A DNA stretch of 64,000 bases, from contig CAYSFB010000001.1 in the NCBI GenBank assembly GCA_964430735.1, forward strand, positions 232,674 through 296,673, written 5' to 3'. Positions 21,459 to 45,301 of this stretch are shown here, piece by piece. This DNA is from an uncultured Planctomycetia bacterium (GTDB lineage: Bacteria > Omnitrophota > Gorgyraeia > 2-02-FULL-51-18 > JAGOUK01). Numbering within the stretch: position 1 is the stretch's first letter; every line of letters starts with the position of its first letter. Under the pieces are notes generated by a model. That model ran no database searches. It saw only the letters and a list, made by a program, of their open reading frames with translations, and was not told where the DNA came from. Made by a program: the position numbers and the translations under genes.

Positions 21459-22577
21459 TCAGACCTTCAAGAGGTCTTTCATTTTTTTCATGAACGAATG
21501 CGAAATCGGATGGGCCTTCTCGCCCGAAATTTCTGCGAATTGCTGCAGAAGCTCCTTCTGCTTGGAGCTCAACGCGGTCGGCGTCTCGACGACGACGCGA
21601 ACATGCTCGTCGCCGCGCCCGTCGCCCTTGATCGAGTGAATCCCCTTGCCCTTGAGGCGGAACACCTTGCCGGTCTGCGTGCCCGCCGGGACCTTGAGCT
21701 CGGTCGGACCTTCGAGCGTCGGGACTTTGATCTCGGCACCCAATGCGGCCTGCGCGAAGCTGATCGGCACGTCGCACAGGATGTCCGACCCGCTGCGTTT
21801 AAAAATCTCGTGCTCGTCGACGTGGATGTCCACGTAAAGGTCGCCCCGGTGGCCGCCTTTATGCCCTGCCTCGCCCTCGCCGGACACGCGCAGCCGCATC
21901 CCCGAATCCACGCCAGCCGGAACCTTGACCGTGATGGTCCGCTCAGTCGACTCGCGTCCGGAACCGCGGCAGGAACCGCAGGGTTTTTCGATGATCGACC
22001 CCTGCCCCGCGCAGGACGGACAGGGCCGGCGGATCTGAAAAAATCCGCTCGACGCCAGGACTTCCCCGGCGCCGCGGCAGGTCGTACAAACTTTTTTCTG
22101 GGTTCCGGGAGCGGCGCCCTGGCCGGCGCAGGTGCGGCAGACTTCTTCACGGCGGACGGGAACTTTTTTATCGCAACCATGGACGGCTTCCAAAAATGTG
22201 AGCTCCAGCTCGACGCCCAGGTCCGCGCCGCGCGCGGCGCGCTGGGTGCGGTGCTGGCCGCCGCGGCCGCCGCCGAAAAAGTCTTCGAAGATGTCCGAAA
22301 AAACGTCCGAAAAACCTTCCGCCCCTCCCGCGCCGCCGAACCCGGCTCCGCCGTTCACGCCGTCCATTCCGTAGCGGTCGTACGCCGCGCGCTTTTCGGG
22401 ATCCGAGAGGATCTCGTAGGCGCGGGAGTACTCTTTGAACTTTTCCTCGGCGTGTTTGTCGCCGGGGTTGCGGTCCGGATGGTGTTTGAGCGCGTGCTTG
22501 CGGAACGCGCTCTTGATCTCTTCGGCCGAAGCCGTCTTGGCGACGCCGAACAGAACGTACAAATCCTGAGTGGACAT
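21459..22577 (-). CDS. dnaJ: chaperone DnaJ
   Basis: J-domain HPD, G/F region, four CxxCxGxG zinc-finger repeats, and a C-terminal domain. Confidence 0.95.
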   Translation of the reverse strand: MSTQDLYVLFGVAKTASAEEIKSAFRKHALKHHPDRNPGDKHAEEKFKEYSRAYEILSDPEKRAAYDRYGMDGVNGGAGFGGAGGAEGFSDVFSDIFEDFFGGGRGGQHRTQRAARGADLGVELELTFLEAVHGCDKKVPVRREEVCRTCAGQGAAPGTQKKVCTTCRGAGEVLASSGFFQIRRPCPSCAGQGSIIEKPCGSCRGSGRESTERTITVKVPAGVDSGMRLRVSGEGEAGHKGGHRGDLYVDIHVDEHEIFKRSGSDILCDVPISFAQAALGAEIKVPTLEGPTELKVPAGTQTGKVFRLKGKGIHSIKGDGRGDEHVRVVVETPTALSSKQKELLQQFAEISGEKAHPISHSFMKKMKDLLKV

Positions 22578-22634
22578 ATCTGCCTATCTTATTGAAAAAC
22601 TGTTAAACCTAAAGATTCTAAAAAAACTTAACCA

Positions 22635-22756
22635 CAGTTCGTTCAAAAAGCCGCATATGCGAGGCGCCGGCGATGCGACCGCGGAGGCGTAGCAGCGCTA
22701 CGCCGCACAAGGGAGCGAGCCGGCAACGAAGCAGATGCGGCTTTTTCAACGAACTG
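22635..22756. repeat. 122-bp nested palindromic element (22-bp terminal inverted repeats around a GC-rich core), copy A
   Basis: CAGTTCGTTCAAAAAGCCGCAT...(78 nt)...ATGCGGCTTTTTCAACGAACTG with 21/22 arm complementarity. Inner hairpin GGCGTAGCagcGCTACGCC. Abuts the dnaK stop codon. Confidence 0.6.
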
Positions 22757-24673
<1,917 letters not shown>

Positions 24674-24713
24674 GACTCCAATCCTCCGTTAATGTCAGCG
24701 GAAAAATTTCCGC

Positions 24714-25217
24714 TTATGATTTTTTGCTAATCTTCACTTTGCTCGGACGCACGAGGCGGCCGTGCAGCGTAAAACCTTTTTGAACTTCCTCGATCACCGT
24801 CTCCTCGTCGCGCGACGCGTCCGTGACTTCCGCGACCGCTTCGTGCAGATTCGCATCGAAGGGCTGGTTGACGCTCGCGATCACTTCGACGCCGTTCTGC
24901 TCGAGAATCTTGTGGAACGTGTTCTGCGCCAGGTGCAGCCCCTTGAGGACCGTCTTCGGGTCGTGGCCCTGGTCGAGGCTCGAGATCGCGCGGTCGAAGT
25001 CGTCCACGACGAGCAGGAAGTCCGTGACGACCTTTTCGATCGCGTACTTCACCGATTCGTCGGCGCGCTTCTGGAGGCGCTTTTTCATGTTTTCGAAATC
25101 GGCGGCGGCCAGGAGATACTTTTCCTCCGCCTCTTTGAGCTTCTGCTGCAGCGCGTCCCACTCCGCCTGGGGAACGGTGACGGTCGGCTGCTGCTCGGCC
25201 TGTGATTCGTGCGTCAT
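24714..25217 (-). CDS. grpE: nucleotide exchange factor GrpE
   Basis: GrpE coiled-coil plus C-terminal beta domain; position between hrcA and dnaK. Confidence 0.9.
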   Translation of the reverse strand: MTHESQAEQQPTVTVPQAEWDALQQKLKEAEEKYLLAAADFENMKKRLQKRADESVKYAIEKVVTDFLLVVDDFDRAISSLDQGHDPKTVLKGLHLAQNTFHKILEQNGVEVIASVNQPFDANLHEAVAEVTDASRDEETVIEEVQKGFTLHGRLVRPSKVKISKKS

Positions 25218-25236
25218 GGTATGACCAACCTTCGGT

Positions 25237-26046
25237 TTAAATTTCGTCGAGCGTTTCGCTGACTTCGTCCGCCAGCCGCGACACGATGCCCACGGTGCGG
25301 TCGTAACGCATCCGGATCGGGCCCATCACGGCAAGGCAGCCGATCGGGCGGCCGTGGAACGTGTAGCGCTTCACGATCATGCTCACTTCGCGCAAACCCT
25401 CGCAGGTGATCTCTTCGCCGATGTAGACGTGCGTCGCGTCGTCGTCGATGTCCTTTTCGAGGAATTGCATGAGCGCCCGCTTGATCTCCAGTGCCCGGAG
25501 CAGCGCCTGCGCCCGCTGAATGTCGCTGAACTCCGGCTGTCCGAACACGTGCCGCGCGCCGTCGACATAGAGCCGGTGGAAGTCCCCCGTCCGGCGGGCC
25601 GCCGCGGCATCCGCCGCTCCGCCGCGCGCGTCCAAGTCCTGAATATACGAAAAGCGCGAAAGGTTCCGGACAAAGGCGAGCCCCGCGTTCTGGGTCAGCT
25701 CGGCCAGGATCTGCGCGGCCGTTTCGGCCACGTCTTCGATATCGTTGGCCCGGGCCAGCGTTTCATGGGCTTCCGGAAGATCGGCGGGCTGCTTGGCCTC
25801 GCCGGCAATCATCCGGTCGACGTAATAACGGTAACCGCGCGCGGTCGGGATGCGGCCGGCGGAGGTATGTGGCTGCTGGATGAAGCCCATTTCTTCGAGA
25901 TCCGCCATCACGTTGCGGATGGATGCCGGCGAAAGGCCTGCCGGGTACATGCGCGAAACAGTCCTCGACCCGACCGGCTCAGCGGTCTGGATATAGGCCT
26001 CGACGATGCATTTAAAGATACCGTCTAAACGGTCGTCTTGGTACAT
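25237..26046 (-). CDS. hrcA: heat-inducible transcription repressor HrcA
   Basis: N-terminal wHTH (IVEAYIQTAEPVGSRTVS); CIRCE operators immediately upstream; first gene of the hrcA-grpE-dnaK-dnaJ operon. Confidence 0.85.
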   Translation of the reverse strand: MYQDDRLDGIFKCIVEAYIQTAEPVGSRTVSRMYPAGLSPASIRNVMADLEEMGFIQQPHTSAGRIPTARGYRYYVDRMIAGEAKQPADLPEAHETLARANDIEDVAETAAQILAELTQNAGLAFVRNLSRFSYIQDLDARGGAADAAAARRTGDFHRLYVDGARHVFGQPEFSDIQRAQALLRALEIKRALMQFLEKDIDDDATHVYIGEEITCEGLREVSMIVKRYTFHGRPIGCLAVMGPIRMRYDRTVGIVSRLADEVSETLDEI

Positions 26047-26079: not shown

Positions 26080-26106
26080 TTAGCACTCTTGACTGTCGAG
26101 TGCCAG
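26080..26106. promoter_or_regulatory. CIRCE operator 1 (TTAGCACTC-N9-GAGTGCCAG)
   Basis: Left arm perfect, right arm 7/9 to the CIRCE consensus TTAGCACTC-N9-GAGTGCTAA. Lies just downstream of the predicted -10 of hrcA. Confidence 0.7.
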
Positions 26107-26110
26107 AGGT

Positions 26111-26138
26111 AGTTTATCACGAGGGAAAAAGTTGTCAA
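26111..26138 (-). promoter_or_regulatory. hrcA promoter TTGACA-16-TAAACT (TG-extended -10)
   Basis: Minus-strand reading gives caacTTGACAactttttccctcgTGaTAAACTacct; positioned between the two CIRCE elements. Confidence 0.45.
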
Positions 26139-26142
26139 GTTG

Positions 26143-26169
26143 CTGGCACTCCAAAAAGTGGAGTGCTAG
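26143..26169. promoter_or_regulatory. CIRCE operator 2 (CTGGCACTC-N9-GAGTGCTAG)
   Basis: 7/9 and 8/9 arm matches to CIRCE. Lies immediately upstream of the -35 and overlaps the hflX stop codon. Confidence 0.6.
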
Positions 26170-28233: not shown

Positions 28234-28623
28234 TTAGAACGAAACGCCGCCCGGCGTCGAAACGCCGGGAAGCTCGGGGGCCTGGTAGGTGACGGAATAT
28301 TTTTTCTCGGCAGTCTCGCCGTCCAAGTCGTCTCCGCGCACCCATCCGGTAATGCCCTCGTACGTGACCAAATACCAATTTTCTTTGAACTTGCCGAGCT
28401 GGATCACCCGCATGTCCTCGATCGCGATCTCGGTCGCGGGTGGGATCTTGGCCAGCGACTTGAAGCTGTCCGGCTCCGGCCTCAGCTGCGTCGGAAAGTC
28501 CGCGTTCGTTGTCCGGGTCCGGGACTCGGAAGCGGCGGAATCCGCGCTGGCCGGGGCTGAGCCCAAGCCGGCGGCGGACAAGAATACCGCCAGAACCATC
28601 ATGACGAGTCGGGATGAAGACAT
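28234..28623 (-). CDS. secreted SH3b-domain protein
   Basis: Signal peptide followed by NWYLVTYEGITGWVRGDDL, a bacterial SH3 signature. Confidence 0.55.
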   Translation of the reverse strand: MSSSRLVMMVLAVFLSAAGLGSAPASADSAASESRTRTTNADFPTQLRPEPDSFKSLAKIPPATEIAIEDMRVIQLGKFKENWYLVTYEGITGWVRGDDLDGETAEKKYSVTYQAPELPGVSTPGGVSF

Positions 28624-28647: not shown

Positions 28648-31272
28648 TCATACGGTCAAATCCGCAGGTTTACGGCCGGCGGCCGCGCCGGCCTGAAGCT
28701 CGAATTCCCCGTCCTTGCCCACGGCGACCGTGACCGTCTGTCCGGCTTTGAGCGTGCCCTTCAGGATATCGAGCGCCAGCCGGTCCTGGATCTCCTGCTG
28801 GATGAGGCGGCGCAAGGGCCTGGCCCCGTAGATCGGGTCGTAGCCGTCCTGAGCGAGCTTGGCCTTGGCTTCCTTCGACAGGACGAGCTTCATCCCGCGC
28901 GCCTCGACCTTCTTGGCAAGCTCGGCGATCTGGATATCGACGATCTTCACCAGGTCCTCTTCCGACAACCGGTTGAACACGACGATGTCGTCGACACGGT
29001 TCAGGAGCTCGGGACGGAAGAACTTCTTCAGCTCCGCGCGCACCTGGTCCTTCACACCCTGACTCATTTTGGGCGCTTCCTGCAGGATTTGACTCCCGAC
29101 ATTGGATGTCATGATGACGACCGTGTTCTTAAAGTTCACGACGCGGCCCTGACCGTCCGTGAGGCGGCCGTCTTCCAGGATCTGGAGCAGCACGTTGAAC
29201 ACGTCCGGATGCGCTTTTTCGATCTCGTCGAAGAGGACGATGGAATACGGCCGGCGGCGGACTTTTTCGGTGAGCTGGCCGCCCTCTTCGAACCCGACAT
29301 AGCCGGGCGGTGCGCCGATGAGGCGCGAGACCGAATGCTTTTCCATATACTCCGACATGTCGATGCGCGTCACGGCGTTTTCGTCATTGAACAGGAACCA
29401 CGCGAGCGACTTGGCCAGATGCGTTTTGCCGACGCCGGTGGAACCGAGGAAGATAAAGGAACCGATCGGGCGGCGTTCGTCGCCGAGCCCCGAGCGCGAC
29501 CGGCGGATCGCGTTGGCGATTGATCGCACGGCTTCTTCCTGGCCGACGACGCGTTTGGCGACTTCGTCTTCCATGCGGACGAGCTTTTCCATCTCGCCTT
29601 CCATGAGCTTGGAGACGGGAATGCCGGTCCATTTGGAAACGACTTCGGCAATATCCTCCTCGTCGACTTCTTCCTTCAGCATCTTCCCCTGCTTCTGGAC
29701 CTCGGCGAGGCGCGCGTTCTCGGTCTCGACGGTTCGCTCGAGCTCCTTGAGCTTGCCGTAACGGATTTCCGCGACGCGGTCGAGCTTGCCCTCGCGCTCG
29801 TAACGCTCTTCCTCGGAACGCGCCTTGTCCATCTCGGCCTTCGCCTTGCGGATCCGGTCGATCACGTCTTTTTCCTTTTTCCAGCGGGCTTTGAGCGTAT
29901 CGGACTGAGACTTGAGCTCCGCGATCTCGCGGGTGACCTTGTCCAACTGCCCCTTGGCTCCGGCGTCTTTTTCTTTTTGGAGCGCCTGCTTTTCGATCTC
30001 CAGCTGCGTGGTGCGGCGTTCCAGCTCGTCGATCTCGGTGGGCATGCTGTCGATCTCGATGCGCAGCTTGGACGTCGCCTCGTCAATGAGGTCGATCGCC
30101 TTATCCGGGAGGAAGCGGTCCGAAATATACCGATGACTCAGGTTCACCGCGGCCAGGATCGCAGAATCCTTGATCCGCACGCCGTGATAGACCTCGTACT
30201 TGTCCTTGAGGCCGCGCAGAATGCCGACCGCGTCCTCCGGCGTGGGCTCGGTCACGAACACCGGCTGGAAGCGCCGTTCGAGCGCCTTGTCTTTTTCGAT
30301 GTATTGGCGGTACTCGTCGAGCGTCGTCGCGCCGATGCAGCGCAGCTCGCCGCGCGCAAGCGCGGGCTTGAGCATGTTGGACGCGTCCATCGCGCCGTCG
30401 GATTTACCCGCGCCGACCAGCGTGTGCAGCTCGTCAATGAAGAGAATGACTTCGCCGGCCCTGGACTGAACTTCCTTGAGGACGGCCTTGAGCCGCTCCT
30501 CGAATTCGCCGCGGTACTTGGCGCCGGCGATGAGCGCGCCCAGATCCAGCGAAATGAGGCGCTTGTTCTTGAGCGTCGTCGGCACGTCGCCGTCGGTGAT
30601 GCGTTTGGCCAGGCCTTCGACGATGGCGGTCTTGCCGGTGCCGGGCTCGCCGATGAGAACAGGATTGTTCTTCGTGCGGCGGGACAGCACCTGGATCGCG
30701 CGGCGGATTTCCTGGTCGCGGCCGATCACGGGATCGAGCTTGCCCGTGCGGGCCGCTTCGGTGAGGTCGCGGCCGTATTTTTCGAGCGCCTGGAATTTAG
30801 ATTCGGGGTCCTGGTCGGTGACGCGCTGGGAGCCGCGGATGTCCTTGAGCGCCGCCAAAACCGCGGGCTTGGTGATCTTGTGCCGGCGGATCAGATCGCC
30901 CGTGGCGTCCTTGGCTTCCTGAACCAGTCCGAGCAGAAGATGTTCGACGCTGACATAGTCGTCCTTCAGATCCCGGGCTTCGGCTTCCGCCCGTGCGAGC
31001 ACGGCCTTGGCCTGGGATGACAGGTAACGCTCGACGCCGTCGCCCTGCACGCGCGGCCGGACCTTGAGCGCCGACTCCAGATCCTGGGCGATACGCTCCG
31101 GATCGGCGCCGATTTTTCCGAGCACCGAACCGATGATGGTGTCCGGGACCGTGATCAGCGCCAGAAACAAATGGTCCGCGCCGACTTCCTGATGCCCGAA
31201 TTCCTCGGCCGACCGGACAGCGCCCTGTACGGCCTCCTGCGCCTTGATCGTAAATTTATCGAGTTGAGCCAT
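28648..31272 (-). CDS. clpB: chaperone ClpB (Hsp100 disaggregase)
   Basis: Two AAA+ modules ([12 protein letters not shown]; [12 protein letters not shown]) with the middle coiled-coil domain; 874 aa. Confidence 0.95.
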
Positions 31273-31302
31273 GGGCCACCTCTTCTTCCGGCCCGGGCCG
31301 GA

Positions 31303-31995
31303 TCATGCTTTTTTATTGATGCGAATCTGAACCAATAGGTCGCCGTTTTTGCCGCAGCATTTGCATTCGCGGCCTTGATTGGCCAACCGCAGCTTCTGAC
31401 CGTCCTTGATCCCCATCGGGACCTTCACGGTGAACTGCTGCCCTGAACGCGTCTTGAACTTCACCTCGCCGCCCTTCTGCGCCAAAGCCGGCGGCACCGT
31501 CACTTCGGTTTGAATATCCGTGTCCTCGCGGTCCCCTTCGACTCCGTCGAACCCGCCGTCCGAGCCGCCGGGAGCATTCGAATAATAAAACTGCTGACCT
31601 CCGCTCCGACCGCCCGTCCCCTTGAACAGATCGCCCAAAATATCCTCGAACGCCCCGAATCCGGCCCCGCCGCGCGCGCCGCCCGCTCCGCCCCGCGCCC
31701 CGCCGCCCGACCGGAAAAAATTCATGAACTCGCCGGGATCAAACCCCTGCGCACCCTGATACGACCCGCCGCCAAACCCGCCCTTGCGGACCATGTCGTA
31801 CTCGTCGCGGCGCTTCTTGTCGCTCAGGACGTAATACGCCTCCGAGATCTCTTTGAACTTTTCCTCAGCGGCCTTGTTCCCGGGGTTCTTGTCCGGATGA
31901 TGCTTGAGCGCCAGCTTCCGGTACGCCGATTTGATCTCGGCTTCCGCCGCTGTCTCTCCGACCCCGAGAATTTTGTAATAGTCTTTCTGACTCAC
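31303..31995 (-). CDS. J-domain co-chaperone (CbpA/DnaJ-like, no zinc finger)
   Basis: J-domain YYKILGV...HPDKN, G/F-rich linker, and C-terminal beta domain. Confidence 0.8.
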
Positions 31996-32037
31996 GTGCT
32001 GCCTTTCGTGTACCGGGCCGGACCGGGCCGCGCGGCC

Positions 32038-32059
32038 GGCGGATGATCGCTCATCCGCC
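32038..32059 (-). terminator. stable hairpin GGCGGATGA-tcgc-TCATCCGCC downstream of hsp20 (putative attenuator/partial terminator)
   Basis: 9-bp perfect stem with a 4-nt loop, located 10 nt after the hsp20 stop. No U-tract, so readthrough into the J-protein/clpB genes is likely. Confidence 0.3.
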
Positions 32060-32068
32060 GCCGAACCG

Positions 32069-32425
32069 TCACTTGATCTCGACTCTGCGGGCTGTGGACT
32101 TGACCTCTTCGCGCTTCGGAAGGGTCACTTCAAGGACCCCGTCTTTATACTGCGCCGAGACCTTCGCTTCGTCAACCTCCACCGGAAGCTCCAGAACCCG
32201 GGCGAAGCTGCCGTGCACGCGTTCCGTGCGCAGATAATCCCGGTCCTCGACCCTGGCTTCTTCCTTCTTCTCGCCGCGGATGACGAGCGTGGCACCCTCG
32301 ACCGAGACCTCGACGTCCTTCCGGTCGATACCGGGAAGGTCCGCCTTGACCACGATCTTGTCCGCAGCCTCCTGGACGTCCACTGCGGGCCCCCAGAAGC
32401 AATTCCGACGTGTGATGATATGCAT
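32069..32425 (-). CDS. small heat-shock protein Hsp20
   Basis: Alpha-crystallin domain. Start trimmed to ATG 32425 because the longer TTG-initiated form would encode the CIRCE element; AAGGGGG RBS. Confidence 0.8.
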
Positions 32426-32451
32426 GCTAACCCCCTTTGTTATTGGTAACT

Positions 32452-32478
32452 TTGGCACTCTCAAATACCGAGTGCTAA
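32452..32478. promoter_or_regulatory. CIRCE operator 3 (TTGGCACTC-N9-GAGTGCTAA)
   Basis: 8/9 and 9/9 arm matches; lies 27 nt upstream of the hsp20 ATG. Confidence 0.7.
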
Positions 32479-32495
32479 TTCATGGACAAAAAAAT

Positions 32496-32795
32496 TTACC
32501 GGGTTTTCCGGACCTTCAAAATCTGCTGCTCCATCTCGAGAACCACCTTGACCCCCTGCACTTTGAGCTTCTTGGTTTTCATGTAATGCCAGATCTTTCT
32601 CAGAACGACCATCTCGCGCTTGGAGTACAGCCGCGAACAACCCTCGCTCGGCCGCGGCGGACAGACCACGCATTCCCGATCCAGCTGCTTCAAGACCCAG
32701 ACCGGAATCCCGATGAGACGCGTCACCACCCCGGTCGTGAATACCGGCTCGTCCATGTCGAACTCAAAATCCTCTTCGGCCGGACGACGCTTCAT
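32496..32795 (-). CDS. MerR-family transcriptional regulator (HspR-like)
   Basis: N-terminal MerR HTH (FTTGVVTRLIGIPVWVLKQLDRE...RLYSKREMVVLRKI) plus a short coiled-coil. AGGAG RBS; sits upstream of the hsp20/J-protein/clpB genes. Confidence 0.7.
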   Translation of the reverse strand: MKRRPAEEDFEFDMDEPVFTTGVVTRLIGIPVWVLKQLDRECVVCPPRPSEGCSRLYSKREMVVLRKIWHYMKTKKLKVQGVKVVLEMEQQILKVRKTR

Positions 32796-32827
32796 CGGTG
32801 ACTCCTGTACCCCTTGAGCACACCCAC

Positions 32828-32856
32828 AGTATGCCCCCGCCCCGCCGGAATGTCAA
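32828..32856 (-). promoter_or_regulatory. promoter of MerR/HspR-like gene: TTGACA-17-CATACT
   Basis: Minus-strand reading gives agTTGACAttccggcggggcgggggCATACTgtggg; the -35 hexamer is perfect. Confidence 0.45.
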
Positions 32857-32858
32857 CT

Positions 32859-32884
32859 ATAATCGAAATATTTTTTTCGATTAT
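32859..32884. promoter_or_regulatory. 10-bp perfect inverted repeat ATAATCGAAA-N6-TTTCGATTAT (candidate operator)
   Basis: Lies 3 nt upstream of the -35 of the MerR-like gene and is followed by a third half-site copy (ATCGAAAATA). AT-rich within a GC-rich genome. Confidence 0.45.
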
Positions 32885-32895
32885 CGAAAATACCT

Positions 32896-33648
32896 TCAAG
32901 CCAGCTCCAGCCCCACCGGGCAATGGTCCGACCCCTTCACGTCCTTGAGGATCCAGGCCCGTTTGAGCTTCCCCTTGAGCCGGGGCGAAACCACAAAGTA
33001 GTCGATCCGCCACCCGATATTCCGCGCCCGGCAATTCGACAACCGGCTCCACCAGGTGTAATGTCCGCCGCCCTTCTCAAACTCCCGGAACGTGTCGATG
33101 AACCCCGCCTTCACGAGCGCGTCGAACCCCGCCCGTTCCTCGGGCGTGAACCCGTGGTTCTTCACGTTGGCCTTCGGGTTGGCCAGGTCGATTTCGCGGT
33201 GCGCGACGTTCAGATCCCCGCAAAAAATCACCGGCTTCTTCTTATCGAGCTTCTTCACATACGCCAAAAAATCCTTGTCCCACTCCTTCGTCCGGTACGG
33301 CAGCCGCTCCAGCCCCCGCTTGGAATTGGGTACGTAAACGCTGATCACATAAAACCCCGCAAACTCCGCCGTGAGCACCCGCCCCTCGCCGTCGTGCTTC
33401 GCCGCGCCGATCCCGCGCGTCACCTTGAGCGGCTCCTGCCGGCTGAACAGCGCCGTGCCCGCATACCCCGGCTTCACGGCGTCGTTCCAGAACTCGCGGT
33501 ACCCGGGCAAATCGAGCTTCATCCCGCCCGCCGGGGCCTTGGTCTCCTGAAGGCACAGCACGTCCGGCTTCTCGGCCGCGACGAATTCCCTGAGTCCGGC
33601 CTTCACGGCAGCCCGCACCCCGTTGACGTTCCAAGAAATCAGCTTCAC
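32896..33648 (-). CDS. xth: exodeoxyribonuclease III
   Basis: MKLISWNVNG...LCLQETK...SDHCPV endonuclease/exonuclease/phosphatase-fold motifs. Confidence 0.9.
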   Translation of the reverse strand: MKLISWNVNGVRAAVKAGLREFVAAEKPDVLCLQETKAPAGGMKLDLPGYREFWNDAVKPGYAGTALFSRQEPLKVTRGIGAAKHDGEGRVLTAEFAGFYVISVYVPNSKRGLERLPYRTKEWDKDFLAYVKKLDKKKPVIFCGDLNVAHREIDLANPKANVKNHGFTPEERAGFDALVKAGFIDTFREFEKGGGHYTWWSRLSNCRARNIGWRIDYFVVSPRLKGKLKRAWILKDVKGSDHCPVGLELA

Positions 33649-43197: not shown

Positions 43198-44583
43198 TTA
43201 TAGTGTGGGAAGGTCTTTCTTGAGCTCGTACTGGGAGATGTGGTGGCGGTAGTTTTCCCACTCGATTTCTTTGTTTTCGATCAGCGAGTGGAAAATGTGG
43301 TCGCCCAGCGCCTCGCGGAGGAACTTGGACTTGCGTGCGACTTCGATCGCTTCGCCCAGGCTCGTCGGCATTTCTTCGACGCCGGCCTTCGCTTTTTCTT
43401 CGCGGGACCAGCTGACGACGTCGCCTTCGGCGGCTTTGGGAAGCTTGTACTTTTGCTCGATGCCCTTCAGACCCGCGGCCAGCATCGTGCTGAACGCGAG
43501 GTACGGGTTGCAGGCCGGGTCCGGCGAGCGGAATTCGGCGCGGGCCGTTTCGTCGCGGCCGGCCTTGTTGGCCGGGATGCGGACGAGGGCAGAGCGGTTT
43601 TTCTGCCCCCAGAGGATGTGCGTGGGCGCTTCGTAGCCGGTCACGAGCCGCTTGTAGGAATTGACCCACTGGTTGGTCACGATCGCCATTTCGCGCGAGT
43701 GGCGGAGGAGGCCGGCGACATAGGCCTTGGCCACCGGCGACATCTGGGCCTTGTCGCGCGCGTCGTAGAACGCGTTGCGCTCGGCGACGCCCTTGCGCGC
43801 CGCGTGGAACAGCGACTGGTGCACGTGCATGCCGCTGCCGTTCTGGCCTTCGATCGGCTTGGGCATGAAGGTCGCGTGAACGCCGTTGCGCAGCGCGATC
43901 TCTTTGGCGGTCAGGCGGTACGTCATCACGCTGTCGGCCATCGTGAGCGCGTCCATGTGCTTGAGGTCAATCTCGTGCTGGCCCGGGGCCACTTCGTGGT
44001 GGCTCGAATGGACGGGAATCCCCATCTCCTCGAGCGTCAGCACCGTCTGGCGGCGCATGTCGCTGCCGGTATCGAGCGGCGTCAGGTCAAAATAGCCGCC
44101 CTGGTCGGTGGGCTCGGGCTTGTCGGTCGACTTGAAATAAAAGAACTCGATTTCGGGTCCGACGTAAAACGTGAAGCCGAGCTGGGCCGCGCGCTTGAGC
44201 TGGCGCTTGAGGCAGTGCCGCGGGTCGCCCTCGAAGGGGCGGCCGTCCATGTGATGGATGTCAGCGAACATGCGGGCCACGGCGTTCTCGCGCGGGCGCC
44301 ACGGCAGGACCTGGAAGGTCTTCGGGTCGCAGACGGCGATCATGTCGTGCTCTTCGGCGCGGGCGAAGCTTTCGATCGACGAGCCGTCGACGCCGACGCC
44401 CTCCTCGAGGGCCTTGTCGAGCGCGTCGATGGTGATCGCGAAGCTTTTCAGGAAGCCGAGGATGTCGGTGAACCAGATGCGGATGAATTTGACGTCATGC
44501 TCACGGGCCTGCTGGGTCAAAAAGACGGCGGCGTCGCGGCGGGCTTTGGCTCCGGAACGGGAAGGGCTGGTTTGGGGGCTCAT
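43198..44583 (-). CDS. glnA: glutamine synthetase type I
   Basis: VKFIRIWFTDILG beta-grasp N-terminus, catalytic core ...NGSGMHVHQSLF..., and adenylylation-region-like C-terminus. Start set at ATG 44583 (AAGGAAAC RBS); an alternative ATG is at 44598. Confidence 0.9.
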   Translation of the reverse strand: MSPQTSPSRSGAKARRDAAVFLTQQAREHDVKFIRIWFTDILGFLKSFAITIDALDKALEEGVGVDGSSIESFARAEEHDMIAVCDPKTFQVLPWRPRENAVARMFADIHHMDGRPFEGDPRHCLKRQLKRAAQLGFTFYVGPEIEFFYFKSTDKPEPTDQGGYFDLTPLDTGSDMRRQTVLTLEEMGIPVHSSHHEVAPGQHEIDLKHMDALTMADSVMTYRLTAKEIALRNGVHATFMPKPIEGQNGSGMHVHQSLFHAARKGVAERNAFYDARDKAQMSPVAKAYVAGLLRHSREMAIVTNQWVNSYKRLVTGYEAPTHILWGQKNRSALVRIPANKAGRDETARAEFRSPDPACNPYLAFSTMLAAGLKGIEQKYKLPKAAEGDVVSWSREEKAKAGVEEMPTSLGEAIEVARKSKFLREALGDHIFHSLIENKEIEWENYRHHISQYELKKDLPTL

Positions 44584-44611
44584 AAGTTTCCTTTTCATGC
44601 TCCAGAAGGGG

Positions 44612-45301
44612 TCAGTCGGAGTCGGGTTGAATGAATTTGTAGCCGATGTTCCGGACCGTCTCGATAAAGGCGCGCTTCTTGATCTCGATCTTGGACCGCA
44701 GGCGGCGGACGTGAACGTCGACCGTCCGGGCTCCGCCGAAGTACTCATAACCCCAGACCTTGTTGAGCAGCGCGTCGCGGTCGAAGACCTGGCCCGGATG
44801 GCTGGCCAGGAACTTGAGCAATTGATATTCGGTGTAGGTCAGATCGACCTTGTCCCCGCCCACGCGGACTTCATAACGGCCGATGTCGATTTCGAGGTCG
44901 CCGGAGATGATGACGTTTTTGTCGGTGATCCGGTGGAATTTTTTGTAGGCAAGGACGAGGCGCGCGACGCATTCCTCGACCCGGAGCGGACGGGTGAACA
45001 CATCGTACACGCCGGCCGGGATCTGAAAGGACGGATGCGCCAGCTCCTTCACGTCGAGCACGGCGAACAGCGGAAGTTCGGCGAGCGCTTTTTCGGACTT
45101 GATGCGCTCGCAGACGGCGAGAAGGGCGGCGGAAGAAGCGGCGGAAGCCACGAGAAGCTCGGGCTTGGCTTTGGCGGCCAGATCGGCCGTGACGTCTTTG
45201 ACGGCCGCCTGACGGCTGACAAAATGCGGCGAGTCTTTGAGCGCCTGCTGAAGGGCTTTGAGGTCGTCGGAATCCGATATCAACAAAACTTTGGCGTTCA
45301 T
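44612..45301 (-). CDS. OmpR-family winged-helix regulator with atypical (Asp-less) receiver domain
   Basis: C-terminal trans_reg_C domain (LTYTEYQLLKFLASHPGQVFDRDALLNKVWG...RTVDVHVRRLR). In the receiver-like N-terminus the acidic pocket DSDD is present, but the phospho-acceptor position reads PELLVAS instead of DLVLLD. Confidence 0.7.
   Translation of the reverse strand: MNAKVLLISDSDDLKALQQALKDSPHFVSRQAAVKDVTADLAAKAKPELLVASAASSAALLAVCERIKSEKALAELPLFAVLDVKELAHPSFQIPAGVYDVFTRPLRVEECVARLVLAYKKFHRITDKNVIISGDLEIDIGRYEVRVGGDKVDLTYTEYQLLKFLASHPGQVFDRDALLNKVWGYEYFGGARTVDVHVRRLRSKIEIKKRAFIETVRNIGYKFIQPDSD

Follow-up and report, generated by a model that had tools for sequence, protein, structure and literature searches.

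A conserved TTTCGA half-site array and an intercistronic CIRCE suggest two-repressor control of a regulator-hsp20-clpB operon

The window, i.e. the whole stretch of 64,000 nucleotides that was analysed, carries a gene for a 99-residue MerR-family protein followed by hsp20, a J-domain protein gene and clpB (Table 1). As the original prediction had stated, the four genes are co-directional, and all features of the array, promoter and operon are read on the minus strand. Among relatives, the order regulator-hsp20-clpB, or clpB-regulator, is kept, clpB being a conserved member of the operon. The J-protein gene is lineage-specific and lies outside the conserved module: it occupies the position seen in the window only in the close relatives L001, L164 and L165, it is placed after clpB in L035, and most orthologous operons have no J protein. 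The Hsp20 protein of the window is short by about 37 residues of its N-terminal arm, with 10 residues before the W.P..D motif vs 46-50 in orthologs; those of L164 and L165 are full length. A GGGGG ribosome-binding site serves the hsp20 ATG at 32425, and the MHIITRR start fits the M.LIP.R of the orthologs. The maximal hsp20 open reading frame (TTG at 32464) would run over the CIRCE element found between the regulator gene and hsp20. Because of the ribosome-binding site and the ortholog-like first residues of ATG 32425, we place CIRCE outside the hsp20 coding sequence, and the concern voiced with the original prediction, that this element might lie inside a longer hsp20, is not borne out.

Table 1. 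Coordinates of the genes and elements of the locus within the window
Feature	Position	Strand	Remark
xth	33648..32896	-	gene directly upstream of regulator
Half-site A1, TTTCGA	32884..32889	-	left arm of N3 dyad TTTCGATAATCGAAA (site I); read from sequence
Half-site A2, TCGAAA	32875..32880	-	common to N3 dyad and N6 dyad; best-conserved half-site
Half-site A3, TTTCGA	32863..32868	-	21 bp from A1, begins site II; 8.4 bits
Perfect 10-N6-10 inverted repeat, ATAATCGAAA-N6-TTTCGATTAT	32859..32884	.	originally predicted repeat; pattern search
Sigma-70-type operon promoter, TTGACA-17-CATACT	32828..32856	-	promoter scan, 10/12 positions
HspR-like MerR regulator, 99 aa	32496..32795	-	Pfam MerR_1, NCBIfam HspR
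AAATTTTTTT tract (A3T7)	32488..32497	-	conserved; ends 9 nt before CIRCE
CIRCE, TTAGCACTC-N9-GAGTGCCAA	32452..32478	.	between regulator gene and hsp20; 1 mismatch to consensus
hsp20, 118 aa	32069..32425	-	Pfam HSP20, E 1.8e-25
Stem-loop, GCGA loop, without U-tract	32037..32060	-	directly 3' of hsp20; folding
J-domain protein, 230 aa	31303..31995	-	Pfam DnaJ and partial DnaJ_C
clpB	28648..31272	-	Pfam Clp_N, AAA, AAA_2, ClpB_D2-small
Two further CIRCE elements	26080..26169	.	flanking hrcA promoter; CIRCE search

The operon promoter is near consensus, as predicted, with its hexamers TTGACA (32856..32851) and CATACT (32833..32828) separated by 17 nt. The perfect 10-bp inverted repeat on which the original prediction was built exists upstream of it and is unique, with a single match in the 64-kb window at up to 3 mismatches and 0 in 100 shuffles; its gap to the -35 measures 2 nt instead of the predicted 3 nt. 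The third half-site announced next to this repeat is also present. It is not a lone add-on, since TTTCGA (32889..32884) forms a second perfect dyad, TTTCGATAATCGAAA at 32875-32889, which is conserved at least as well as the 10-N6-10 repeat. Site II, starting at A3, extends into the -35 hexamer. We conclude that a half-site lattice phased at 21 bp, and not a single repeat, makes up the functional unit. A position weight matrix (PWM) trained on other loci only gave 48.6 bits to the array of the window and 11.1 bits to the next unrelated site of the window. The TTTCGA array was not found at the hrcA promoter region (26080..26169) in the window scan. Another perfect N3 dyad, at 24058-24072, falls within the dnaK coding sequence and is for this reason probably coincidental; the stretch appears to encode a conserved S-I-L-E motif.

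The array is found at orthologous regulator-hsp20-clpB promoters in about 38 of 40 related loci with GC contents of 30-65 %, 28 of the array-bearing loci being Omnitrophota-type and 10 low-GC. Conservation upstream of orthologous regulators had been raised as a refuting test in the original prediction, which withstands it. Half-site A1 reaches 7.9 bits in Omnitrophota-type and 11.1 bits in low-GC loci, and A2 9.4 and 11.1 bits, respectively. Across loci, the CpG of A2 keeps a distance of 7 bp to the CpG of A1 and of 14 bp to the CpG of A3, so that the CpG cores form a rigid 7/14/21 bp spacing (relative positions 0, +7 and +21), and this lattice moves as one block relative to the -35. A fourth half-site is present at +42, within the promoter spacer, in most relatives. 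The window lacks it, and promoter occlusion here would therefore depend on site II alone. The 26 promoter windows held 75 half-site 5-mers, vs 3.1 +/- 2.1 in shuffled sequences; AT-matched controls held 0.08 per window. In the clpB-regulator operons L016, L021 and L031, the array stands upstream of clpB, the first gene; the array thus tracks the operon promoter and not the regulator gene. Array and regulator occur together in every assessable locus, under several phylum labels.

The promoters of relatives read TTGACAAA...TGgTATAAT; the 17-nt spacer is shared by the window and its relatives and an extended -10 is frequent. Neither hexamer varies in L001, L164 and L165. In close relatives the array is likewise invariant together with the hexamers, while the spacer and 5'UTR have diverged, and A3 is unchanged in the four closest relatives despite the diverged promoter spacer. 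In the low-GC group the strong dyad lies about 85 bp upstream of the predicted start site, as estimated from the sequences. A metagenome scan with TTCGAWWWTCGAAANNNNNNTTTCGA returned an unrelated 7-bp-periodic palindrome, AATTCGAATTTCGAAATTCGAATTTCGAAATT, in 79 of the 80 loci examined; the sole true array, L099, has the regulator and then clpB downstream. Resemblances to Fur-box, Cheo/LexA-box, CtsR and sigma-54 sites, noted by eye, were dropped because the would-be matching positions are not the conserved ones. HAIR (CTTGAGT-N7-ACTCAAG) has 0 matches in the 64-kb window at up to 3 mismatches, and no HAIR-like match was seen near any operon promoter of the 40 loci, in agreement with the original description of the repeat as AT-rich and unlike the Streptomyces HAIR.

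The regulator matches Pfam MerR_1 with 31.2 bits, above the cutoff of 21.6. Its best family match is HspR, as originally proposed, and HspR is the top NCBIfam match in 35 of 35 members (best E-value 1.8e-16); it is not a canonical HspR, its 47.9 bits to NF047375 being below the curated equivalog cutoff of 105. As for HspR, the gene is encoded inside a heat-shock operon, in a conserved order. The members are about 97-100 residues long; the recognition helix, VWVLKQLD, is invariant, and so are the wing residues R48, R55 and Y57. The structure model (pLDDT 87.6) contains helices 21-28 and 32-40, a wing and helices 59-74 and 79-98, and the protein has no sensor domain. All top fold matches of the model are MerR-family proteins bound to DNA. 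The nearest solved folds are DNA-bound GlnR/TnrA, with TM values of 0.7-0.89, and a sequence-profile search also gave GlnR/TnrA as the nearest solved structures (E 1.7e-07). The sequence and the model thus indicate a diverged relative of HspR with a fold closest to GlnR/TnrA. A literature search returned nothing relevant on an Omnitrophota heat-shock MerR regulator or on an HspR-like regulator of hsp20.

CIRCE was searched with the consensus TTAGCACTC-N9-GAGTGCTAA. The element upstream of hsp20 is present as predicted, with one mismatch where 0 matches are expected, and the gap between it and the hsp20 ATG (32425) is 26 nt and not 27. It begins 17 nt after the stop codon of the regulator gene, a distance of 15-18 nt in 21 of 26 loci and of 21-34 nt in the remaining five. 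Array and CIRCE are conserved together in one operon in about 26 loci. In 24 of 26 loci, CIRCE is preceded by a run of at least five T that ends about 9-10 nt ahead of it; in 23 of these the run starts 14-17 nt ahead of CIRCE, and the value of -7 for L029 is a search artefact, a second T-run having been picked. CIRCE is placed between two operon genes without a recognisable internal promoter: there is no conserved -35/-10 before it, the best matches reaching 6-9 of 12 positions across loci and 7 of 12 in the window. An internal sigma-70 promoter with the T-tract for its -10 was rejected, as was a reading of the CIRCE arms as a -35 and an extended -10, for lack of a conserved -35 and because the -10 candidates are inconsistent. 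The T-tract does not behave as the U-tract of an intrinsic terminator either, no hairpin being conserved ahead of it (mean z -0.65). The genome encodes the HrcA system: an hrcA-grpE-dnaK-dnaJ operon (26046..21459) lies 6 kb downstream, HrcA (25237-26046) matches TIGR00331 with 226.9 bits vs a cutoff of 197.2, and a pair of CIRCE elements accompanies the gene. The conserved AAATTTTTTT tract and CIRCE-bound HrcA could, with rather low probability, work as a terminator without a hairpin: HrcA would stop RNA polymerase coming from the array promoter while its RNA 3' end lies in the U-tract, and the polymerase would be released; the regulator would then be constitutive, and hsp20-clpB would be transcribed only after HrcA leaves.

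The strong hairpin without U-tract that had been predicted right after hsp20 holds up, with -25 kcal/mol, z -3.2 and 0 of 200 shuffles as stable. The fold of the entire 86-nt hsp20-J spacer gives z -0.49, the signal appearing when only the post-stop segment is folded. L164 (z -5.2) and L165 (z -7.5) have stem-loops of unrelated sequence at the equivalent position, and stable post-hsp20 hairpins, again unrelated in sequence, occur in 9 of 18 loci tested. Rfam gave no match at E <= 1 on 31200-33100, and thus no known RNA thermometer there.

The elements, their geometry and conservation, and the family and fold of the protein described above form the basis of the reading that we favour: the array is probably the operator of the co-encoded 99-residue HspR-like MerR protein acting as an autorepressor, with HrcA at CIRCE as an additional checkpoint. 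The pairing of protein and array is deduced from their adjacency, and the direction of regulation, the cooperativity and the heat signal are proposed as follows. Binding by dimers of the protein would start at the full dyad, site I, and spread cooperatively, in a register of two helical turns, onto the half-consensus sites over the -35 and, in relatives, also in the spacer, so that the bound protein would repress its own operon. A dimer may bind either the N3 or the N6 dyad. Upon heat shock, repression would be released by chaperone titration or by intrinsic thermal lability, which we propose because the regulator has no sensor domain. HrcA bound at CIRCE, 17 nt past the regulator stop, would govern whether transcription continues into hsp20, the J-protein gene and clpB, and the post-hsp20 stem-loop would additionally tune how much hsp20 transcript is made relative to the transcript downstream. 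The convergence of two repressor systems, HspR-like and HrcA/CIRCE, on one cluster had been put forward originally and is supported by the co-conservation of array and CIRCE in about 26 loci and by the presence of hrcA. Several observations count against parts of this model. In the N3 dyad the centres are 9 bp apart, a short distance for MerR-type dimers. The array is seen once in the 64-kb window and at one promoter per locus, with no sign there of a regulon beyond the regulator's own operon, and the distance of about 85 bp in the low-GC group is far for simple occlusion. For the HrcA checkpoint, the lack of a recognisable promoter next to CIRCE makes the mode of action of HrcA less certain.

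We consider it unlikely that the same protein binds the array and activates the operon from upstream sites, the centre of site I being near -61. In favour of this reading, activators are common among MerR-family proteins, both site I and the N6 dyad are located upstream of the -35, and the strong dyad of the low-GC group is far upstream. The layout nevertheless departs from that of MerR-activated promoters, whose dyad operator sits inside an over-long -35/-10 spacer. The array is mostly upstream of the -35, and the promoters are already near-consensus, often with an extended -10, with optimal spacers of 17 nt vs 19-20 nt in MerR-activated promoters, which calls for a repressor rather than an activator. 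Moreover, site II reaches over the -35, the spacer contains a half-site in most relatives, and the closest family, HspR, is a repressor (PMC7464140).

It is also improbable that the array is bound by another factor encoded elsewhere, or is a structural or UP-like AT-rich element, the MerR protein having a different target. The link between protein and sites is one of adjacency, and an AT-rich array upstream of the -35 has the position of UP elements. The information, however, lies in CG-containing TTCGA cores on a rigid lattice and not in general AT-richness. The co-occurrence of array and regulator in every assessable locus, the movement of the array with the operon promoter and the dyad symmetry, which fits a dimeric helix-turn-helix protein, also argue against this reading.

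It is very unlikely that the 99-residue protein does not bind DNA and instead modulates the adjacent J protein in the manner of CbpM. It has the size of CbpM and a MerR-like fold (match to CbpM 3ucs, TMq 0.70), two homologs have a precomputed match to Pfam MerR_2 (PF13591), which we take to be the domain of CbpM, and the J-protein gene is two genes downstream in the window. Yet the J protein is missing from most orthologous operons, the best sequence and fold matches are DNA-bound GlnR/TnrA and HspR, and a conserved dyad array accompanies the regulator gene. The invariant R48, R55 and Y57 are DNA-contact Arg/Tyr residues that CbpM lacks (PMC4063869). Finally, a chance palindrome or an xth terminator, for which one could invoke the position of the repeat 7-37 nt past the xth stop codon and its potential hairpin, is refuted by the conservation of the repeat in dozens of loci without xth upstream; the 0 shuffle matches, the PWM score of 48.6 bits and the AT-rich repeat being followed by the -35 with no U-tract also speak against it.

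The autorepressor reading can be set against known systems. GlnR/TnrA of Bacillus and relatives share with the regulator a PxF/PVF N-terminal motif, a winged helix-turn-helix, a short C-terminal helix and the absence of a ligand domain. A partner protein switches the DNA binding of GlnR/TnrA, and GlnR acts at a pair of adjacent operators; both points offer a helpful precedent for a multi-site repressor gated by chaperones. The identity is about 20-26 %, there is no nitrogen-metabolism context and the neighbours are chaperone genes. The GlnR/TnrA operator motif is TGTNA-N7-TNACA, whereas the promoter as read carries TTTCGA dyads. A glutamine synthetase gene lies at 43198-44748, 10 kb away.

CbpM, the modulator of the co-chaperone CbpA, is similar in its length of about 100 residues, its MerR-like fold and, in the window, a nearby J-protein gene. 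It is evolutionarily linked to HspR and lacks the DNA-contact Arg and Tyr residues (PMC4063869). The family described here keeps these residues and does not classify as CbpM. Its gene is upstream of the J-protein gene, whereas that of CbpM is downstream of cbpA, and the proximity to a J-protein gene is not conserved.

The one-mismatch CIRCE, and hrcA leading a typical hrcA-grpE-dnaK-dnaJ operon with two CIRCEs around its promoter, correspond to the HrcA/CIRCE system. Classical CIRCEs sit at or just downstream of the promoter, whereas the one described here is intercistronic, at a fixed distance past the regulator stop, with the conserved A3T7 tract before it and no recognisable promoter. Termination that depends on a repressor is a candidate mechanism for this fixed unit of T-tract and CIRCE.

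The closest parallel is HspR/HAIR of Streptomyces, Mycobacterium, Helicobacter, Campylobacter and Deinococcus, likewise a small MerR protein inside a chaperone operon with presumed autoregulation and several dyad sites upstream of and over a strong promoter. In HspR, the repressor activity is modulated by DnaK or CbpA. The family described here differs in being shorter (about 97-100 residues, 47.9 vs 105 bits, helix VWVLKQLD), in its operator, TTTCGA-based with 7/14/21 spacing instead of HAIR, and in its conserved partners, hsp20 and clpB and not dnaK or cbpA. To our knowledge, few operator types are known for repressor-based heat-shock control, and none in Omnitrophota or in nearby uncultured phyla. 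Together, the TTTCGA lattice and the 99-residue protein may represent an undescribed heat-shock repressor-operator pair of Omnitrophota-type and Melainabacteria-labelled bacteria, apart from HAIR, CIRCE, CtsR boxes and ROSE. The lattice provides a precise cis-element with a likely regulator, made of about 27 defined bases in a rigid geometry with about 40 natural variants, and the PWM can be used to map stress regulons in metagenome-assembled genomes. In C. jejuni and H. pylori, HspR binds cooperatively to multiple sites upstream of promoters and is combined with HrcA at CIRCE (PMC7464140). The array and the HrcA checkpoint are most likely a variation on this known HspR and HrcA scheme, the two-repressor logic of Epsilonproteobacteria appearing to recur in distant phyla with another operator.

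The original prediction had read the regulator, hsp20, J-protein and clpB genes as one co-directional string, and all four are indeed on the minus strand. On this strand, the sequence upstream of the regulator gene reads, 5' to 3', TTTCGA-TAA-TCGAAA-AAAATA-TTTCGA-TTATAG-TTGACA-(17 nt)-CATACT, where the three half-sites, named A1, A2 and A3, precede a promoter that matches the consensus at 10 of 12 positions, as had been proposed. The predicted 10-bp inverted repeat with a 6-nt spacer (A2 and A3, N6 dyad) is perfect; with up to 3 mismatches allowed, nothing else in the 64 kb matches it, and 100 shuffled sequences gave no match. The "third half-site" (A1) forms with A2 a second perfect dyad, TTTCGATAATCGAAA (N3 dyad). 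With a weight matrix derived from 26 other loci, the array scored 48.6 bits versus 11.1 bits for the next unrelated site in the window. No array was found at hrcA-dnaK, the window's only other heat-shock operon, which carries CIRCE, the HrcA operator. Another perfect TTTCGA-N3-TCGAAA dyad lies inside dnaK, where the coding strand reads TCG ATC CTC GAA, which in the assumed frame would spell the conserved S-I-L-E motif; a coincidence of the coding sequence is more probable here than an operator.

Positions of the chaperone genes and of the associated control elements in the window
Feature	Position	Strand	Remark
xth	33648..32896	minus	upstream of the intergenic region
Intergenic region, 100 nt		minus	between xth and regulator gene
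A1 half-site	32889..32884
N6 dyad, 10-N6-10 repeat	32859-32884
MerR-family regulator gene	32795..32496	minus	99 aa
A3T7 tract	32488-32497	minus	AAATTTTTTT
CIRCE upstream of hsp20	32452-32478		one mismatch
hsp20	32425..32069	minus	118 aa
J-domain protein gene	31995..31303	minus
clpB	31272..28648	minus
129-aa ORF	28234-28623	minus	after clpB
Second Hsp20-domain protein gene		minus	after the ORF
hflX		minus	stop codon 26166-26168
Upstream CIRCE of hrcA promoter	26143-26169		overlaps hflX stop codon
hrcA-grpE-dnaK-dnaJ	26046..21459	minus	canonical operon
N3-type dyad in dnaK	24058-24072

We aligned about 60 close homologs of the regulator (95-105 aa; Omnitrophica in most sources naming an organism) and compared the 40 genome loci retrieved through the alignment, numbered with the prefix L. 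The same architecture recurs upstream of the orthologous regulator operons, in genomes of 30 to 65% GC: TTTCGAwAATCGAAA - N6 - TTTCGAaa - 3-5 nt - TTGACAAA - ..TTCGAaAT.. - TGgTATAAT, with a fourth half-site, A4, in the promoter spacer. The 26 promoter windows of 75 nt contain 75 TTCGA/TCGAA 5-mers (3.1 ± 2.1 in shuffles), and AT-matched control windows of the same loci 0.08 each. The CpG cores are rigidly spaced at 7, 14 and 21 bp and typically lie at -30, -23, -9 and +12 from the start of the -35; this lattice moves against the -35 by 1-2 nt as a unit, and in L014 it is offset by about one helical turn. Alignment on this lattice gave 7.9, 9.4, 8.4 and 3.7 bits for A1 to A4, A2, the half-site common to both dyads, being the best conserved. 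In the window and its close relatives L001, L164 and L165, array, -35 and -10 show no change, in contrast to a diverged 17-nt spacer and 5'UTR. The repeat is a conserved array and no chance palindrome.

Five loci (L007, L009, L016, L031, L034) kept only A2/A3, and a low-GC Melainabacteria-labelled group kept mainly A1/A2, with weaker N3-type dyads at +21; evolutionary support is thus seen for both dyads. In three loci with the order clpB-regulator, the array lies upstream of clpB and not of the regulator: it tracks the promoter. The exceptions are L013, cut by a contig end, and L028, whose regulator is a pseudogene interrupted by a stop codon within the helix-turn-helix; this copy lacks promoter and array and retains CIRCE and hsp20. 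The low-GC group (L002, L004, L006, L011, L012, L015, L018, L020, L039, L040; labelled Melainabacteria or "Gammaproteobacteria") carries an N3 dyad that precedes the regulator gene by about 100 nt, and an extended -10 (TGGGTATAAT), with no clear -35 and no CIRCE after the regulator gene; every CpG core of L012 is now TpG. A metagenome scan for further arrays was dominated by another sequence, a near-identical 32-bp palindrome of 7-bp periodicity, AATTCGAATTTCGAAATTCGAATTTCGAAATT. At least 79 unrelated contigs (among L044-L123; 32-70% GC) carry it, many of them of soil or sediment origin; unrelated to the regulator operon, it is perhaps a REP-like element.

The regulator scores above the Pfam MerR_1 cutoff. 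For each of the 35 aligned members, HspR is the top NCBIfam model; the window protein reaches 47.9 bits, below the cutoff of 105, and is therefore not an HspR equivalog by membership. The recognition helix PVWVLKQLD and wing residues R48, R55, Y57 and S58 are invariant in the alignment. The AlphaFold model (pLDDT 87.6) consists of a winged helix-turn-helix and two helices, with no sensor domain, and among solved structures DNA-bound GlnR and TnrA come closest in both profile and fold comparisons. CbpM also superposes on it (TMq 0.70); this identity was rejected, as the family keeps the Arg and Tyr DNA contacts that CbpM lacks (PMC4063869). In a search of 1.84 billion representatives, scores above 95 bits were confined to about a dozen clusters at 50% identity; lower scores grade into longer HspR-like proteins (120-170 aa). 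The family is a small, distinct branch beside HspR.

Which protein binds the array, whether it represses or activates, its cooperativity and the heat signal are all inferred. The HspR-like protein would bind the array and repress its own operon, nucleating on the full dyad and then spreading in a 21-bp register across the -35 and, in relatives, into the promoter spacer. Repression, and not activation of the MerR type, is favoured by promoters that are close to consensus and have 17-nt spacers.

The CIRCE announced upstream of hsp20 is present; it ends 26 nt before the ATG (27 in the original prediction) and starts 17 nt past the regulator stop codon. HrcA is above its equivalog cutoff, and two further CIRCEs flank the hrcA promoter. 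About 26 Omnitrophota-type loci have a CIRCE after the regulator gene. Its start lies 15-18 nt past the stop in 21 loci; in L026, L027, L029, L030 and L032 the distance is 21-34 nt. In the simplest reading, the operon is read from the array promoter and HrcA acts on the CIRCE between genes. A conserved A3T7 tract (L001-L037) ends 9-10 nt before this intercistronic CIRCE, at a constant distance even where the regulator stop codon has shifted; no such tract accompanies the CIRCE pair of the hrcA promoter. It is unlikely, though conceivable, that tract and CIRCE form an HrcA-dependent terminator without hairpin. A classical terminator U-tract or a recognisable promoter was dismissed, neither hairpin nor conserved -35 being found there. 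In L003 (4267-4400, an Omnitrophota MAG), regulator gene, T-tract and CIRCE precede groES in place of hsp20; the same control cassette therefore serves a different chaperone operon.

The conserved gene order is regulator, hsp20 (one to three copies), clpB; besides the window, the J-protein gene lies inside the operon in its close relatives L001, L164 and L165 alone, and in L035 it follows clpB. The nearest relatives are Omnitrophota-type MAGs, some under other automatic taxonomic labels. Some genomes carry two regulator-hsp20 modules (L028 and L034 in MAG DAOWGP01, L004 and L039 in MAG CALBDR01). The 129-aa ORF has no Pfam or NCBIfam match; its position is kept in L001 (66% identity, tblastn) and in L164 (124-aa gene, weak SH3_3 match). 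Between 32.8 and 21.5 kb, the 11 genes that begin with the regulator gene and end with dnaJ all point the same way; the gaps are short, and two of the junctions carry CIRCE elements. This stretch may constitute a chaperone super-operon with HrcA checkpoints. The window Hsp20 retains the M..I..RR start and the alpha-crystallin domain, its N-terminal arm being short by about 37 residues; hsp20 is full-length in L164 (6391-6867, 158 aa) and L165 (6417-6881, 154 aa) and reduced to a short remnant in L001 (3470-3620). Decay of the operon's first sHSP gene appears to be under way in this lineage. The strong hairpin expected right after hsp20 was recovered (-25 kcal/mol, z -3.2). L164 (z -5.2) and L165 (z -7.5) also have a stem-loop at this position, as do 9 of 18 loci overall, but the sequences are unrelated; no U-tract accompanies any of those inspected. 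These structures resemble attenuators or 3'-end stabilisers setting the ratio of hsp20 to downstream transcript.

In C. jejuni and H. pylori, HspR was shown experimentally to bind, upstream of the promoter, a high-affinity site with low-affinity sites at its flanks, and HrcA acts on CIRCE at the same genes (PMC7464140). The nucleation and spreading proposed here would resemble this binding, and the two repressor systems predicted on one chaperone cluster would correspond functionally to the HspR and HrcA scheme. The difference from HspR/HAIR lies in a regulator under the HspR equivalog cutoff and in an operator that, as foreseen, is not HAIR, the HspR operator of known systems; the window has no HAIR-like site. 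The searchable literature yielded no description of the regulator subfamily or of a TTTCGA-type heat-shock operator. The two-repressor scheme is thus known, while the regulator subfamily and its TTTCGA-type operator are apparently new.
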